Shown: positions 2,707-10,352 of the stretch, in pieces
Layout of the letters: each line of letters opens with the position of its first letter
Numbering within the stretch: the stretch's first letter is position 1
Virus genome (UHGV): UHGV-0106422
Origin: a virus
Length of the DNA: 15,288 bases
Reading direction: 5' to 3' (one strand)
Position numbers and translations under genes: made by a program
The notes under the pieces: model-generated
Told to the model about the DNA's origin: nothing
The model's input: only the letters and a program-made list of their open reading frames with translations
Databases searched by the model: none

Positions 2707-5616
2707 TTATGCCTGAGTACGCAGAGCTTCAAGGCGGCGCAGGTCGAAGTCGTTCAGTTCGTCGGTGTAGTCAGCAGTGATTGGCGCTGGCCATTCACCT
2801 GTGTCGAATCCGGTTGCGATATTGCGCATCGCTTTGCGGTACTCGAGCATACCCAGCTCCAGTAGTTCAGCGGATGCCTCGATGATGGCGATCCAGTGGT
2901 AGTTCTCGTCTTTGTTGACGAAAATCCAGAAGAACTGATCCAGCGCTGCGGTTTCGCAGTACATAGCCGCGCTCAGGTGATAATCACGTTCAATAATTTC
3001 CCGGTGTAGCCTGGCGCGCAGGCTTTCCTGCTTAACATTCCACATGCTGATGGTTTTCAGGTCTGCACCTATACGCACGCCATCCAGGTCGATCTCAAGG
3101 TCAGGGCGCACACGAACTTCCAAGCCCGTCTCCTCGTCAAAACCAAAGTAGCTCACCTCAACGGCTCGGCTAGGGTGGGTCAGCAGCATGCCGGCGGTCG
3201 GGTGTGCCAGAAGCGCTTTTTGAATATTCAGCGCGGTGCTCAGCTGCTGGCGGGTGACCAGCACTTTTCCTTCCGGGTTATCGCGCCAGGCATCCAGCAG
3301 TTCGTCGGCAAATACGTCATCTGGTTTGACTGCCTTCACGGCCTGGATCATGTCTGCTTTGGTACCGGACACTTTCAGTGGTGCCGGTTTCTGTGCTTCC
3401 TGAGCCACAAGGTCAGGGTTGATGATTGCCAACTGCTCCAGCAGCGCGTCACGGCTGCCGCTGGTTTTAACCGGCGGCGGCAGGGTGGCGTTGTACTCTT
3501 TAATGCATGCCTTCATTGCCGTCGCCGTCTGCTTCTGGTCACCATCAATACGCTGGAAGTCAGCTGGCAGCGCCATATAGTTCTGTGCCGTTTCTTCCAG
3601 GTTAGCGCCAAGCGGAACCTGCGGCGGCAGGGTGGCGTTGTACTCTTCCAGTAACACCTTGATGTCGTCGGCAGACAGCAGCGCCGGCAGGCTGGCATTG
3701 TGCTCATCGATAAAGGCGCGCAGGGTCGCGGCCGTTGTGAATGCGCCTTCAGGGATCACCGGTTCAACGCTGAATTCTGCGTCCAGTAGTTCAGGCTGCA
3801 ACGCCAGCGCATGCACCAAGTTGCCCATGTCCAGCACCGCTGAGCGCTCTTTGACGATGGTTTTCTCTACGTGGCGCGCATTGAAGTACATCAGCGAAAC
3901 GCGCGCATCTTTCACCTGGGTTGAGCTGATGCCGTTGGCGGCGTGGTAAACCTCGTTTGGCAGCCCTTCATAGCGGCCTGGCTCGAAATAAGCGGGATAA
4001 ACAACAGCTGGTTCGTCAGATTGCGCTTCTGGCTCGGTTTGTGCTGCAACTGGTTCGGTTTGGCTTACAGAATCGCTATTTTTGGCGACAGAATCCGTAT
4101 TCTGGTCTACATCGTCCTTCTGGCTGGTATCTGACTCTTCACCAGACTCCAGACTGCTTTCGCCTGGCTGTACTTCATCACCAGCTTGTTTTTCATCACT
4201 GACAGTTTCTTGAACCTGCACATTGCTGGTGGTCTCCGTAGCCTTTTTCGTGCCATGAGTTGCTGAGTTCTGCAGCAAAGCCGTAACGTCGAATATTCCG
4301 TTGCCGACATTTTTAACCAGTTCTTGTTCGACTTTCTGCGGTTGTGCTGCCGCTTCCTCTGCGCGGCGGCGTGCTCCTTCTTCACGCACGCGTTGCAGGT
4401 TCTCTTCGTGAGTGCAGAAGGATTTGCGCGGAGACTCCTTACCTTCAGGTTGGGGAATTTCCTGTGCTGCGGGTTCAGCTTCATGCAACGGCAATAACTC
4501 GACCGCGGAATTGAACGCGGCTGTCATGGTCTGGTTAACAAATTCCAGGTGAGCGACAGGAGTTAAATGAATATTTTCCGGTGCGATACGTACCAGGTTA
4601 AAAATAGCCGTGCGGTTAACACCCAGAACGCCTGGCTGATTGCGCAGGATGTTGCTCCATGATTTCCATGGTTCTTCTTTTTTGGTCACGATTTCTTTAG
4701 CGCGACGAAGAATGCTGCCCGGGATCTCGAAGTGGTTGAAGTCCATAGGCAGAAGGGCACACGCAATCTCTAAATCGAGAGTGTCCAGTGTGTGGTGTGC
4801 CTCAGGTCCACGGTCAGTGACGTAACCGCCGTCGGCATTAGTGCCGGAATCAGTACGCTGCACACTACTGATGCGATTACCGGCGGCCCATTCACGCGCC
4901 AGGATGCCACGGTCAATGTAATCAGTCGCCGCCCACATTCTGGTGAAACGGAGTACCAGCGCGAGTTCGTGACGCTTGTCCTGGCTGAACACTTTGCGAA
5001 TGGCATCGGTGTAGCGCCACAGGTCTTTGGTGTCGTAACCCTTCACTTCCGGGCAGTTCTCAGCAGCTAACAGCAAGTTCTGGACGTAACTGTTATCAGT
5101 GTCCATCTCCAGCGCGCCGATAGCTTCGTACTCTTCATGGGTTACGTGGTGGCGCAGTTCGTCGGCGGTGAACTGGGAAAGCAGTTGCTTACGAAACGGC
5201 ATCTGCACTACCGGGTAGAGGGTTGAGTCGTCGTCGTGTTCGTCCAGCGTGATGCCAGCGGTTTCTGACAGCGTTGACTCAGTAGTTATGTGACTATCAA
5301 CGGTCTGAGCCGTTTTCTCGTCAGAGTTTTCAGCTGTGACTTTTGGCAGCCAGGTGCGGTCATCGTTCTGCAGTTCGTAGCGTTCGCACCAGGTGTAATC
5401 CACTGCGCCTTCTTCCGGCAGGTCGTCATATACCGGGAAATCGGTGCGGATTGGTTTGGCATAATCTTTACCGCGGCCAGTTTCTTCAATTCCGGCTTCT
5501 TCCAGTGCCACATCGAGTTGGAGATTGGCGCGCGCTACACTTTTCGCAGTGAACCAAATCACTGCATCTTTCTTGCCAGACTTCTGACTGGCTTTTATCA
5601 GATGGAAAAATTCCAT
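2707..5616 (-). CDS. recE: Exodeoxyribonuclease VIII (RecE-like), 969 aa
   Basis: N-terminus (…DAVIWFTA…FPVYDDLPEEGAVDYTWCERYEL…GNRISSVQRTDSGTNADGGYVTDRGP) closely parallels recalled E. coli Rac RecE; the C-terminal ~300 aa carries the nuclease-type domain. Immediately upstream of, and co-oriented with, the annealing protein. Confidence 0.85.
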   Translation of the reverse strand: MEFFHLIKASQKSGKKDAVIWFTAKSVARANLQLDVALEEAGIEETGRGKDYAKPIRTDFPVYDDLPEEGAVDYTWCERYELQNDDRTWLPKVTAENSDEKTAQTVDSHITTESTLSETAGITLDEHDDDSTLYPVVQMPFRKQLLSQFTADELRHHVTHEEYEAIGALEMDTDNSYVQNLLLAAENCPEVKGYDTKDLWRYTDAIRKVFSQDKRHELALVLRFTRMWAATDYIDRGILAREWAAGNRISSVQRTDSGTNADGGYVTDRGPEAHHTLDTLDLEIACALLPMDFNHFEIPGSILRRAKEIVTKKEEPWKSWSNILRNQPGVLGVNRTAIFNLVRIAPENIHLTPVAHLEFVNQTMTAAFNSAVELLPLHEAEPAAQEIPQPEGKESPRKSFCTHEENLQRVREEGARRRAEEAAAQPQKVEQELVKNVGNGIFDVTALLQNSATHGTKKATETTSNVQVQETVSDEKQAGDEVQPGESSLESGEESDTSQKDDVDQNTDSVAKNSDSVSQTEPVAAQTEPEAQSDEPAVVYPAYFEPGRYEGLPNEVYHAANGISSTQVKDARVSLMYFNARHVEKTIVKERSAVLDMGNLVHALALQPELLDAEFSVEPVIPEGAFTTAATLRAFIDEHNASLPALLSADDIKVLLEEYNATLPPQVPLGANLEETAQNYMALPADFQRIDGDQKQTATAMKACIKEYNATLPPPVKTSGSRDALLEQLAIINPDLVAQEAQKPAPLKVSGTKADMIQAVKAVKPDDVFADELLDAWRDNPEGKVLVTRQQLSTALNIQKALLAHPTAGMLLTHPSRAVEVSYFGFDEETGLEVRVRPDLEIDLDGVRIGADLKTISMWNVKQESLRARLHREIIERDYHLSAAMYCETAALDQFFWIFVNKDENYHWIAIIEASAELLELGMLEYRKAMRNIATGFDTGEWPAPITADYTDELNDFDLRRLEALRTQA

Positions 5617-5756
5617 GTGAGATCCTCATTTTTGGGTGTTAGAATCCCCGGACCATTGATAGCGCCCATTGGGTTAACTTTGGTTTTAATGTTGTTTCCG
5701 GTGTAACTTTGGTCGGTGAGGCCGGACATGGCGGGCCCACTTCGGTGGGCTTTCGC

Positions 5757-7202: not shown

Positions 7203-7514
7203 AAAAAATCCTCTTGTGATTCAGCCCAGCCCACTCAACTTCGAATGGACTGGAATAAATCTGTTTGCGCTTCGCACCTCTCATCCCGCCAGTGTTGCCC
7301 GTTCCCACGCCTTTATCGCTCTCGCGAGGGGGTAGCCTCACACCGACCGGTTCGCCGCCGGTGATACGCCGCATTTTGTGCGTTGGGGTCTAAACAGGAT
7401 TGCCGAGTGCTGTTCCGACTTTGCATGTTGTTAAAAAGCAGGCGACTTGCTGTCCGCCGCTGGCTAACTTCGCTCAGCTGTCGATGTTTCGTTTCGATGA
7501 GCTGATTATTAACT

Positions 7515-7591
7515 AATGGTTATTTTCAGTCAATAACCATTGGTTAATTATTTTGCCATTGGTTATTAAGGTTATGATTTATTGGTTAATT
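7515..7591. promoter_or_regulatory. Array of ATTGGTTA(A/T)T motifs, including a perfect 10-bp inverted repeat (AATGGTTATT-7 bp-AATAACCATT)
   Basis: Inverted repeat at 7515-7524 / 7532-7541, with further direct copies at about 7542-7550, 7557-7566 and 7581-7590, in an AT-rich gap upstream of the 7652 ORF. Motif differs from the TTAACT half-sites of the cI/cro operators. Confidence 0.4.
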
Positions 7592-7651
7592 TAGTTCTGT
7601 TATGGATTTGTGCAGTACGTGCTATGCTGCAAAAAACATCAGGAGGTAGCT

Positions 7652-7870
7652 ATGGAACGAGATGAACGTGCAGATGAACGAATGGCCTTCATGGCTGGAG
7701 AGGTTGGGTGCGTAGTGTTCGAGCTGGTTTATAACGGAATTGAAATCAATAAGGACAACATTGTGGGATTTCTGGAAGGGAAGCGCAAAGCCGTAGGAAA
7801 CGTGATCCATAAGGGGATGCTACGGGATGCAGCTGAGATAGTCAGGAAGGGTAGTAAAGCTGTGAAGTAG
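7652..7870 (+). CDS. Hypothetical small protein (72 aa)
   Basis: Strong AGGAGG RBS 6 nt before ATG at 7652; the track's longer 7610 start lacks an RBS. Convergent with the cI-linked cassette and sharing its terminator region. Confidence 0.5.
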   Translation: MERDERADERMAFMAGEVGCVVFELVYNGIEINKDNIVGFLEGKRKAVGNVIHKGMLRDAAEIVRKGSKAVK

Positions 7871-7874
7871 GCAC

Positions 7875-7897
7875 AAAAAACCCGGCGCGGTGGCCGG
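7875..7897 (-). terminator. Intrinsic terminator closing the cI-linked cassette (possibly bidirectional)
   Basis: Plus strand AAAAAACCCGGCGCGGTGGCCGGG: GC-rich 6-bp stem CCCGGC/GCCGGG, followed on the minus-strand transcript by UUUUUU; sits 9 bp past the stop of the 7906..8838 gene. Confidence 0.6.
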
Positions 7898-7905
7898 GTG
7901 AGATA

Positions 7906-8838
7906 TTAAAGAACCGATTTAACAAGATGGTTTTTACGGTACAGACCTATGCGATCATTGTGAATCTCAGTAGTCTCCACTAAAAGAGAAACAATCTGTC
8001 CGACCTTGTGTTTTTTTTGTATTAAATCTAGCATTTCAATCGGATAGGAAGCCTTTAAATGTTCACCACCAACATCAAGCTCCAGCTTCCCATATTTGGA
8101 TAGAACGACCAGTTCGCCTGTAACCGTTTCAGTAATGGGAGGGGATGAAATGGTTGATGTAAGTCTACTCACCAAGTACTTAATTTTATTGGAGTCAATA
8201 GTTGCCACCTTGGTGCCATTACTAAATGGACCGGTCCAACTTGCATCAAATGTTAAGTTGTGTTTATCGCATTCCTCTACGATTCTCTTAAGGCTTACAG
8301 TGGAATTGTATCCAATTTCAGCGACGTGATTCATGAAGTTGTTGTCGTCATCGCTTAACAACAAATCGAATATGCCTTTTACAGCCTTGCTGGGTACTGT
8401 TTCTACTAATTCTGCTATTCCTGTAGAGAAGGTGACGCCCAATTTTGTAGACCCAGGGGATAAATCAGCCAGCCTGAGGTTTAAGGAGCTTTTCACGTCG
8501 TAGGGAACTTTTTTTGAGTCCTTGCCTGAGGCAATTTTGTGTGTTGCTCTTTGTATTAGCGCTGCAAGATTTGTTGAAATAGCCCCAAGCAGCTCTAAAG
8601 GAATAGAGCCAAAGTCAACCTCAGAGCCTTTCAGCCGCAGCTCAAAAAAATCGATAAGTGGGTGCCGACTATCTTGCTTTAATTTTTCGGCCTTCAAATC
8701 GCTCAGATGAGAATCCATGGAGCGATAAAGAAGCATGTCAGCAAAGGACCTGGTTTTGTTTTGCTTCATTGCATCGACTTCTTTTTGAATGAAATCAATG
8801 CGTTTATCGCAATTTTTAAACATTGATTTATCATTCAT
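7906..8838 (-). CDS. Hypothetical protein (310 aa), distal gene of the cI-linked AT-rich cassette
   Basis: Start ATG overlaps the stop of the upstream gene (ATGA, translational coupling); visibly AT-richer than flanking phage core genes; no recognisable catalytic motif or TM segment by eye. Confidence 0.7.
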   Translation of the reverse strand: MNDKSMFKNCDKRIDFIQKEVDAMKQNKTRSFADMLLYRSMDSHLSDLKAEKLKQDSRHPLIDFFELRLKGSEVDFGSIPLELLGAISTNLAALIQRATHKIASGKDSKKVPYDVKSSLNLRLADLSPGSTKLGVTFSTGIAELVETVPSKAVKGIFDLLLSDDDNNFMNHVAEIGYNSTVSLKRIVEECDKHNLTFDASWTGPFSNGTKVATIDSNKIKYLVSRLTSTISSPPITETVTGELVVLSKYGKLELDVGGEHLKASYPIEMLDLIQKKHKVGQIVSLLVETTEIHNDRIGLYRKNHLVKSVL

Positions 8839-9314
8839 AAAAAAATCCTCACTAACCCTTTCGGGTTTTCACTGCGATCAAAACCAAACCAACCGCGCCA
8901 GTAGCTACGCCAGTACTCATAATCATAGTTAGGGTCATCTAAATTCTTCATGAGTAGTAGGACATCAATTTTGTAGTTTTGTTTGATGTAGTTTCGGTCA
9001 AGCAAATTATCGACGCGGCCCCGAAGCATGACAGGTATTGAGTTTATATTGCTATAGTCACATACCAACAAAATATCAATATCATCAGGCTCTGGTTTAG
9101 ACGTGGTGTATGAACCATCAACCCATATTTCTGTAAAACAGCCATATTGAGCAGATAATTCTCGAATAGATTCGAGTAGCTGTATAAAATTACAGTATAG
9201 CATGCCTCGCCTGGATGATGAAGGAAAGCAATCGACACAATACGATTTTAATCCAGCTTCATCCATGTCATGGAACCCTGGCTCAAACAGGGGTGGGTAA
9301 TTAATTTTATCCAT
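8835..9314 (-). CDS. Small nucleotidyltransferase-fold-like protein (~159 aa from ATG 9314; track shows a GTG-initiated 175 aa form to 9362)
   Basis: Motif ...EIWVDGSYTTSKPEPDDIDILLVCD... fits the minimal Pol-beta-type NTase signature (G-S, about 9 residues, then D-x-D, followed by hydrophobics). AAGG 6 nt upstream of ATG 9314; none before the GTG. AT-rich. Confidence 0.6.
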   Translation of the reverse strand: MDKINYPPLFEPGFHDMDEAGLKSYCVDCFPSSSRRGMLYCNFIQLLESIRELSAQYGCFTEIWVDGSYTTSKPEPDDIDILLVCDYSNINSIPVMLRGRVDNLLDRNYIKQNYKIDVLLLMKNLDDPNYDYEYWRSYWRGWFGFDRSENPKGLVRIFL

Positions 9315-9491
9315 AAAAAACCTTGCTATACATTTGTTTTTTTTTATTAAAAATCTAACCACCGAAATGGTGACGGCAAGATGTTACATGGGGTTACAAT
9401 CAGCCAATACACCGCATTAAATAATTTTTTCACCAGCTATGCGCCGACCAGAACACCTTGCCCATCACCCAAACGTCTCATCAGGCCACCG

Positions 9492-10268
9492 CTACAGCAA
9501 TACCGAGTACCAGAAGAGACGGCCAATTATCTCGACATCATCAATATCAGCCTCTTCGTCTGGGTAGGAGTCGTTGTTGTAACTGCGGATGATCAGCTTC
9601 CCACCTGGCTTACGATACAGCTGTTTAATGCGCTTGAGTTGACCATTCCCGCCATCTGTCTGACCAATGGCATACAGTTTCCCATCAACTATGCGTTTGT
9701 TGTTCGTATCGACGGCTACAGTCGTACCATCCGGTATCACAGGTTCCATGCTGTCGCCAGTAGCAGGGAAACACAGGATGCCAGACCCATCTGTGTTAGC
9801 TCCAACGCGGCGGAGGGTTGCCTTTGAGAACCTGAGCTTAAAACCATTGTGATCTTCGCTGTGTACGCGTCCATCGCCACACGCAAATTCAATATCCTTA
9901 AGAAACGGCACTTCAACCTCGTCAGCAGGAAGCGGTGTGTTTTTATCCCAGGCGTCAACAGTTCCCCATTCAGATTCTGGAGGGATAGATGACTCCCTAC
10001 GCAGTTCAGGTTCGGGATCATTCCTTCCGTATTCAAGCCACTCAGGCCGTACCCCAAGCCAGCGGCTAAGGGCAAGGATATTGGTTTGGTCTGGTATCGC
10101 TGATGCGTTAAGCCATTTCCAGATCCCGGGCTCAGATACAGTAATTCCTTGGGACTTCATAGCCTCTCTGATCCTACCAGCCTGCCCACGACCACCAACG
10201 CCAGCATCAAGCAATGCAGCGCGAAGTCTTTTCGAGAATTCTTCTTTTAAATCGTCTTTTTTAACCAT
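9492..10268 (-). CDS. cI: Phage repressor CI (HTH N-terminal domain plus S24 LexA-like autopeptidase C-terminal domain)
   Basis: C-terminal GDSMEP motif is characteristic of the LexA/CI S24 self-cleaving family; divergent from the cro-like gene across an operator-rich gap. Confidence 0.9.
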   Translation of the reverse strand: MVKKDDLKEEFSKRLRAALLDAGVGGRGQAGRIREAMKSQGITVSEPGIWKWLNASAIPDQTNILALSRWLGVRPEWLEYGRNDPEPELRRESSIPPESEWGTVDAWDKNTPLPADEVEVPFLKDIEFACGDGRVHSEDHNGFKLRFSKATLRRVGANTDGSGILCFPATGDSMEPVIPDGTTVAVDTNNKRIVDGKLYAIGQTDGGNGQLKRIKQLYRKPGGKLIIRSYNNDSYPDEEADIDDVEIIGRLFWYSVLL

Positions 10269-10352
10269 TCGTTAATTATCAATTAGAGTTGACATAACTG
10301 TCAGTTAAGATATAACCTTAACTCGTAGTTAATATAGTTAACGGAAAACACT
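10269..10352. promoter_or_regulatory. Divergent immunity control region (OR-like operators with PR and PRM)
   Basis: Three palindromic sites with TTAACT/AGTTAA half-sites at about 10272-10286, 10295-10307 (TAACTGTCAGTTA) and 10318-10332 (TTAACTCGTAGTTAA), spaced 23 bp centre to centre. PR candidate: -35 TTGACA (10289-10294), 16-bp spacer, -10 TATAAC (10311-10316). On the minus strand GATAAT sits 6 nt before the cI ATG, suggesting a leaderless PRM transcript as in lambda. Confidence 0.7.

Follow-up and report, generated by a model that had tools for sequence, protein, structure and literature searches.

The stretch of DNA analyzed here, 15,288 nucleotides from the virus genome UHGV-0106422 and referred to as the window herein, is a mosaic phi80/HK225/mEp237-type lambdoid prophage segment that extends from the integrase gene to the replication genes. 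Directly behind the cI-type prophage repressor on its minus strand lie two genes, A and B, and we found that this cassette is a member of PDC-M63, a PADLOC candidate that consists of PDC-M63A and PDC-M63B in the same gene order. Read along the minus strand, the features are a pRM-like promoter, cI, a 177-nt spacer, gene A, gene B, and a terminator (Table 1). The stop/start overlap of A and B can be read directly in the sequence, and related loci keep an overlapping or abutting arrangement of the two genes.

The repressor of the window resembles the HK225/phi80 type, and the position of the pRM-like promoter in front of it matches that of the annotated phi80 pRM. Judged from sequence, this promoter is the presumed source of a cI-A-B transcript. 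Within the cI-A spacer we observed a sole hairpin, at 9377-9358, with a folding energy of -7.2 kcal/mol and a z-score of -0.19 against shuffled sequence. We rejected this hairpin as a cI-A terminator because its stability is no better than that of shuffled sequence. The terminator that ends the operon folds at -13.7 kcal/mol (z -2.1). The guanine-plus-cytosine (GC) content of the cassette is 40.2%, while the remainder of the window has 51.7%; no other 1.4-kb stretch of the window is as GC-poor. A first-pass annotation, made from the sequence of the window, had described two coupled genes behind cI, a strong terminator at the end of the cassette but none between cI and A, and an AT-rich composition, and each of these descriptions held. 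Its cassette boundary at 9362 did not, as this is the GTG start of a mechanically extended open reading frame (ORF) of 175 aa. Gene A likely starts at the ATG at 9314, because the family profiles begin at residue 17 of that ORF and because mEpX1 annotates a 480-nt gene; an AAGG lies six bases upstream of this ATG.

Table 1. Features of the repressor operon and its surroundings in the window.
Feature	Coordinates	Strand	Description
pRM-like sigma-70 promoter	10275..10304	-	CTGACA-18-GATAAT; consensus scan 10/12; ends 7 nt before the cI ATG
cI-type prophage repressor	9492..10268	-	258 aa; helix-turn-helix (HTH) and S24 peptidase; Pfam Peptidase_S24 1.2e-15; phrog_4 2.8e-43
Conserved junction block, upstream recombination joint	9432..9491	-	Relic of lambda-type cI 3' end and first ~30 nt of cI-rexA spacer
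Gene A	8835..9314	-	159 aa; predicted minimal Pol-beta-type nucleotidyltransferase (NTase); DUF6932 / PDC-M63A / phrog_9194
ATGA stop/start overlap of A and B	8835..8838	-	A stop TGA 8837-8835; B ATG 8838-8836
Gene B	7906..8838	-	310-aa soluble protein; PDC-M63B / phrog_6603; predicted helical hairpin, central domain, and C-terminal oligonucleotide/oligosaccharide-binding (OB) fold (~235-309)
Intrinsic terminator ending the operon	7873..7899	-	Stem 7899-7880; 7 pairs (6 G-C); U6 run
pL-like promoter	7505..7533	-	TTGACT-17-AATAAT; promoter scan 10/12; inside palindromic operator arms

Both proteins carry the assignment to PDC-M63. A matched the PADLOC PDC-M63A model PDLC04744 over residues 17-174 of the 175-aa ORF (2.4e-41, 139 bits), and B matched the PDC-M63B model PDLC04749 (7.5e-45) plus five more PDC-M63B models. 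Matches to phrog_9194 (3.3e-64) and phrog_6603 (3.4e-147) were obtained for A and B, respectively. The pair, which the first-pass annotation had been unable to place in a known family, thus has one. PDC-M63 (cassette CAS_00189) is one of "145 untested" candidates that came from "guilt-by-embedding", its members having been found embedded in BREX, DISARM, or type I restriction-modification (RM) systems (Payne et al. 2024, bioRxiv 10.1101/2024.01.29.577857). The NTase family FAM_00167 forms another cassette too, which the PADLOC authors rejected as a candidate.

A matched Pfam DUF6932 with 86.9 bits (gathering cut-off 27; E 2.3e-24), and its RefSeq label is "DUF6932 family protein". PF01909 is also present in some A homologs, and NCBIfam contained no model for A or B. 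Across 50 homologs, with identities down to 34%, residues G67, S68, D78, and D80 are invariant, and the third Asp, D117, is found in at least 90%. The VDGS...DDIDILL stretch and D117 together correspond to the hG[GS], [DE]h[DE]h, and third-carboxylate signature of Pol-beta enzymes, and the catalytic residues map to beta1, beta2, and beta3 of the AlphaFold2 (AF2) model. This model has a predicted local distance difference test score (pLDDT) of 96 and the canonical NTase topology, with an alpha-beta-alpha-beta-alpha-beta core. Sequence and profile searches of the A family against the PDB returned nothing significant, the Pol-beta palm matches being weak (E about 0.4). By structure, the top 18 Foldseek matches in the PDB were all NTases, at marginal E-values of 1e-3 to 7e-2. 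The relatives found by Foldseek were the Sulfolobus minimal NTase 2rff, MNT antitoxins of HEPN-MNT modules, CdnC, and AAD(9)-type aminoglycoside adenylyltransferases, with MNT antitoxins (7ae9, 6m6u, 8xeo) as the nearest solved structures. Taken together, the invariant residues and the predicted fold indicate that A is a catalytically intact minimal NTase, which bears out the NTase-like motif that the first-pass annotation had noticed in the first protein.

A second conserved feature of A is the motif RSYWRGWFGF at residues 136-145, in which R136-G141 and F143 are invariant and W142, G144, and F145 occur in at least 90% of the same 50 homologs. This segment (window 8880-8909) can be aligned weakly with RSYWLGGW of a ribosome modulation factor (PDB 2jrm); the match, at E 0.23, was not significant but may point to an RNA-contacting helix. 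Lastly, A is acidic, with an isoelectric point (pI) of 4.7, as it is in 98% of pairs.

Searches with B returned no Pfam, NCBIfam, or PDB sequence match, the PDB search giving coiled-coil noise only. An exhaustive profile search among 1.84 billion representatives yielded 267 clusters, in which full-length matches were nearly all ~300-330 aa and no domain fusions were found. The model of B (pLDDT 81) begins with a helical hairpin, continues with a central region for which no structural relative was detectable, and ends in a five-stranded beta-barrel with a helix inserted between strands 3 and 4, the arrangement of an OB fold. This predicted OB fold is similar to SSB/RPA and to the OB domains with which LysRS and AsnRS bind anticodons; its strands carry conserved basic and aromatic positions (K/R251, F/Y265, K/R301, and Y/F304). 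The single family-wide invariant residue of B is Ser130 (82/82), which lies within G-S-[TS]-[RK] in a low-confidence loop of the central domain; E/D63, R68, R122, W201, and W212 are near-invariant. We rejected B as a HEPN protein. Its R39-x4-H44 is unconserved, R39 being present in 9/82 and H44 in 55/82 sequences, and isolated sub-threshold matches to HEPN_AbiU2 and HEPN_Toprim_N appeared in one of the 82 members each, with no consistent HEPN Pfam match. Residues 62-146 of the central domain (window 8401-8655), which include Ser130, weakly match the N-terminus of the PADLOC candidate PDC-M32A (3.4e-5). This sequence similarity suggests that the B central domain and PDC-M32A share one module. 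A profile of B residues 58-150 recovered four fragments only from a large protein database.

To describe the linkage of the two genes, we used 92 loci, 80 of which came from a viral-contig scan with A-derived peptide patterns alone and 12 from other look-ups. A B homolog lies directly downstream of or overlaps A, on the same strand, in all of them (92/92), at identities down to 29%. The pairwise identities of A and B co-vary (r = 0.95), and B evolves faster, A being the better conserved of the two in 89% of comparisons; this faster divergence might fit a phage-facing component. Only one broken pair was found among the 92 loci, namely L043 (IMGVR_UViG_2917891409_000001, 4450-5399), where B is frameshifted near residue 220 and A is intact. 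The reverse situation was observed at L096 (K. pneumoniae CP155670.1, 1041-3420), where a ~1.9-kb insertion interrupts A behind codon 39 and B is intact. The insertion bears an opposite-strand RVT_1 gene, encoding a group II intron-type reverse transcriptase. Among the three "truncated" A homologs checked, two were explained: the one in an Erwinia phage is a start-codon miscall and the one in K. pneumoniae is this true insertional disruption.

The first-pass annotation had likened the pair to MNT/HepT or AbiE modules. As in HepT/MNT (HEPN-MNT) systems, which are type VII toxin-antitoxin (TA) modules, the small NTase gene precedes a larger partner gene and overlaps it, and the nucleotidylylation that serves there as enzymatic neutralization is a plausible analog for the cassette. 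However, the HepT/MNT partner is a HEPN RNase with an Rx4-6H motif, whereas B has a predicted OB fold instead. A itself differs from MNT in its extra conserved N-terminal GFH and C-terminal RSYWRGWFGF and in its Pfam family, DUF6932. AbiEi/AbiEii and MenA/MenT, too, are abortive-infection or TA modules of two genes, with a Pol-beta-fold NTase at their core. In AbiE and MenAT, the NTase is the second gene, is ~300 aa in length (DUF1814), and has a winged-HTH antitoxin as its partner. In contrast, the NTase of the cassette is the product of the first gene and has 159 aa, and B has no HTH. We rejected AbiE membership, as neither A nor B matched AbiE, AbiEii, DUF1814, or MenT in PADLOC and Pfam and the gene order is opposite. 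At the level of membership, the proposed likeness fails on the missing HEPN Rx4-6H, the missing AbiE match, and the order opposite to AbiE.

Our preferred model, to which we assign a probability of roughly 0.4, is a type VII TA or guard logic in which A restrains B. We favor it because the NTase comes first as in MNT-HepT, because the nearest structures are MNT-like, and because the invariant Ser of B sits in a flexible loop. In this model, cI, A, and B would be co-transcribed in the lysogen from pRM, and A and B would be the two obligate partners of a PDC-M63-type conflict module. The acidic NTase A would continuously spend NTP to hold B in check, either by nucleotidylylation of B, for which Ser130 in the flexible Gly-Ser-Thr loop is the candidate acceptor, or by making a nucleotide or oligonucleotide ligand that B would bind. 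A superinfecting phage would upset the A-B balance and free B, which would then bind single-stranded nucleic acid through its OB fold and block phage development or host growth, such that competitors of the resident prophage would be excluded. We infer the anti-phage function, the direction in which A restrains B, the acceptor site, and the nucleic acid target from the features described above.

In the main rival model, the same two proteins would form a two-subunit terminal NTase, with A as the effector and the OB fold of B bringing it to the 3' ends of single-stranded nucleic acids such as tRNA, as with MenT/AbiEii-type toxins, or phage single-stranded DNA (ssDNA) intermediates. Nucleotide addition by A would then block translation or replication, and B would serve as sensor or adaptor, not as toxin. 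A is the only component with a recognizable catalytic site, that site is invariant, and A is the more conserved of the two proteins. Minimal NTases, which lack a substrate-binding domain, classically borrow one from a partner, as in the PDB title of 1no5, "two protein nucleotidyl transferase"; the likeness of the B OB fold to SSB/RPA and to the LysRS/AsnRS anticodon-binding domains would suit such a role, and the invariant aromatic-basic RSYWRGWFGF helix of A could contact nucleic acid. We nonetheless regard this arrangement as rather unlikely. The size and second position of the AbiE/MenAT NTase are not those of A, and AbiEii/MenT profile matches are absent for both A and B in Pfam and PADLOC. 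Furthermore, the intact A beside a frameshifted B in L043 implies that A alone is not strongly toxic, which counts against A as the effector.

A third arrangement is suggested by Hailong, which consists of the NTase HalB and the membrane channel HalA. We rejected Hailong-type membership, as no transmembrane-like segment was found in A or B: the maximum 19-residue Kyte-Doolittle hydropathy is 1.25 for A and 1.38 for B, compared with 2.39 for RexB as a control. In a guard that is Hailong-like, B would hold in its OB fold an oligonucleotide that A makes constitutively, and it would become active once phage nucleases or SSBs had stripped this ligand off. While an NTase paired with an OB fold of the ssDNA/RNA type suits guard logic and phosphate binding by the GS[TS][RK] loop is conceivable, B has neither a transmembrane segment nor an identifiable effector domain, and the product of A is hypothetical. 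We consider such a guard very unlikely.

The position of the cassette in the prophage offers a further line of evidence. The 20-nt palindromic arms at 7505-7524 and 7532-7551 are 90% complementary and presumably represent OL operator sites for a phi80-type repressor, and phi80 has an equivalent layout at its pL-like promoter/operator region. The cassette is thus bounded by cI and OL/pL, which places it in a rexAB-type position as in lambda. Like RexA/RexB, the cassette comprises two genes on the cI strand, closes with a terminator, and is presumed to be co-transcribed from pRM, and its upstream junction is homologous to that of rexAB at the DNA level. The analogy is positional only. We rejected RexAB homology, since hhalign gave a probability of 0.3% for the B family against RexA and 0.07% for the A family against RexB. 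A and B are predicted to be soluble, unlike the membrane protein RexB, and to our knowledge neither RexA nor RexB is an NTase. A comparable placement is that of bstA in the Salmonella prophage BTP1, which lies directly 3' of the repressor with its own terminator, in conserved synteny, and presumably shares the repressor promoter (PMC8585504). BstA has the same post-repressor placement as the cassette, but it is a single unrelated protein with a DNA self-immunity element, aba; no counterpart of aba came to light for the cassette, although no search aimed at one was made. Between the cassette and pL, a plus-strand ORF of 86 codons at 7610-7870 (phrog_3975, 1.9e-31; likely start Met15) converges on the cassette terminator, and HK225 has a plus-strand ORF of similar size and placement.

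Both ends of the cassette coincide with conserved joints. At the upstream joint, window 9432-9489 and lambda 37196-37251 share ~94% identity. The lambda segment comprises the final 25 nt of cI and the beginning of the cI-rexA spacer, and this match substantiates the rexAB slot proposed in the first-pass annotation. Other lambdoid phages, among them mEpX1 and 434, share the junction block. Its position 3' of the stop of the resident, different cI identifies it as the remnant of a lambda-type cI end. On the minus strand, 9465-9491 reads ...GTTTGGGTGA where lambda has GTTTGGCTGA, which encodes ...F-G-stop. By its sequence, this cI-end relic marks an old immunity swap at the upstream joint. The downstream joint is the terminator region, where phi80 homology spans 7800-7897 and mEpX1 homology begins at 7875. 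In mEpX1, the cassette is 99.6% identical in DNA and encodes A and B proteins that are 100% identical, and it follows a different cI of 212 aa and precedes N. Other occupants of the same slot are rexAB in lambda, gene 40A in phi80, and HK97 gp48/49-like genes in HK225. The cI-N interval has been described as a mosaic hotspot that is also home to the abortive-infection gene bstA (PMC8585504). The conserved joints, the block from the cI 3' end on one side and the terminator on the other, imply that cassettes are exchangeable and that the slot is a plug-in socket.

We also considered an imperfect 17-nt inverted repeat (15/17) whose arms, in the terminator (7887-7903) and at the cI stop (9476-9492), flank the cassette. 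We rejected it as probably coincidental, because ~0.2 such repeats are expected in 2.3 kb by our own estimate and because the pairing is weaker in mEpX1 (13/17). In the Providencia prophages L004 and L006 (4969-5466), a small DUF3024 gene lies between cI and A, accompanied in L004 by a 44-aa ORF, indicating that the slot gathers further cargo upstream of the cassette.

This placement recurs beyond the window. Among enterobacterial viral loci with upstream sequence, a cI-like repressor lies directly upstream on the same strand in 53/54, typically at a distance of 46-250 nt. The repressor alleles differ widely even beside cassettes that are 99-100% identical, and in several distant loci (29-39% identity) the gene directly upstream encodes an unrelated HTH repressor. 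As nearly identical copies adjoin many cI alleles, the cassette can be described as a horizontally shuffled moron, in line with the horizontal acquisition that had been suggested for it, and it is very probably a repressor-operon moron. The pair is uncommon. It was present as this variant in 17/5,426 complete E. coli genomes and as a 55-61% identical variant in 96, ~2% together. Among 50,697 phage records, 6 matched, duplicates included, and they represent three distinct cultured phages that carry the cassette; three plasmid records also matched. Co-occurrence of the pair outside prophages, which had been proposed as a check in the first-pass annotation, was also found. For instance, the pair adjoins YoeB/YefM and a type I RM system in one setting, is carried in another by a mobile element that also encodes RadC, Lar, and a methyltransferase, and at one chromosomal locus stands beside imuB/dnaE2-type genes.

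These settings bear on two readings in which the cassette has no direct anti-phage role. It could be an addiction or stabilization TA module that persists by stabilizing prophages and other mobile elements, and its presence in defense islands would then reflect shared mobility. The genes are small, overlapping, and strictly paired, they are found on mobile elements of various kinds and next to a classical TA module, the sole defense test was negative (see below), and the FAM_00167 NTase also belongs to a cassette that the PADLOC authors rejected. However, the repressor-operon placement in >50 phages of different immunities mirrors that of the proven exclusion genes rexAB and bstA, and PDC-M63 was first found embedded in RM, BREX, or DISARM operons. 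TA and defense roles can, moreover, coexist, and we judge pure addiction to be unlikely. The least probable of the readings is a non-conflict accessory role, such as nucleic acid repair, end-protection, or a host-benefiting lysogenic conversion. The chromosomal locus beside imuB/dnaE2-type genes is in keeping with this role, and OB folds, like NTases, are frequent in DNA repair. On the other side stand the patchy distribution and low prevalence, as well as the low GC content, immunity-type shuffling, and RM/TA neighbors that are hallmarks of conflict systems.

Elsewhere in the window, 5658-5755 on the plus strand gave an Rfam match to isrB, an Hfq-binding small RNA, that scored 38.2 bits (gathering score 35; E 6.5e-4). 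The match sits in the gap between a RecE-like gene and the next leftward ORF.

It is plausible that the cassette is a defense module. Several observations weigh against the A-restrains-B model. Deletion of PDC-M63AB from its native E. coli NILS69 prophage gave no defense phenotype versus 10 virulent double-stranded DNA phages, and this is the only experimental test of PDC-M63AB that we found in the literature searched. The structural matches of A to MNT antitoxins are marginal, with Foldseek E-values of 1e-3 to 5e-2 and template-modeling (TM) scores of 0.3-0.4. Profile, Pfam, and PDB searches revealed no recognizable toxic or enzymatic domain in B, which makes its effector role conjecture. The disrupted A of L096 and the frameshifted B of L043 imply that neither single loss is obviously lethal in situ. 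Lastly, co-transcription from pRM, on which the model draws, is deduced from sequence only. The NILS69 test used virulent phages only, so a target range of temperate competitors would explain its outcome; a module in a repressor operon may be tuned to such competitors, and the negative result may not decide the matter.

In the literature searched, we found no mention of "DUF6932", PDC-M63 was named in the NILS69 study only, and the DefensePredictor and domain-centric NAR 2026 papers mentioned no NTase/OB pair. What is new for PDC-M63 in this analysis is the predicted OB fold of B, its invariant Ser, the linkage of A and B in 92/92 loci, and the synteny with repressor operons of different immunity types. 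In the passages of the preprint consulted (bioRxiv 10.1101/2024.01.29.577857), neither this fold nor the Ser nor the placement in prophage repressor operons is described.

The most far-reaching claim that could be made from this locus is that PDC-M63 truly acts against phages and does so by a new mechanism, in which a complex of an NTase and an OB-fold protein senses single-stranded nucleic acid and targets superinfecting temperate competitors. We hold this claim to be possible but on balance doubtful. If it is not a defense system, PDC-M63 would be a clean case of a widely catalogued candidate to down-weight. If the claim is true, PDC-M63 operates from the repressor operons of lambdoid and other temperate phages, and either Ser nucleotidylylation or the synthesis of an OB-bound oligonucleotide would be chemistry unlike that of every validated system. 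The OB fold would then represent a new partner type in NTase-based immunity, and the system would come with a tractable E. coli K-12 model, since mEpX1 encodes identical A and B proteins. The cI-to-pL slot is the home of rexAB, the oldest unsolved abortive-infection system, and the same PDC-M63 cassette has spread over many immunity types and genera.

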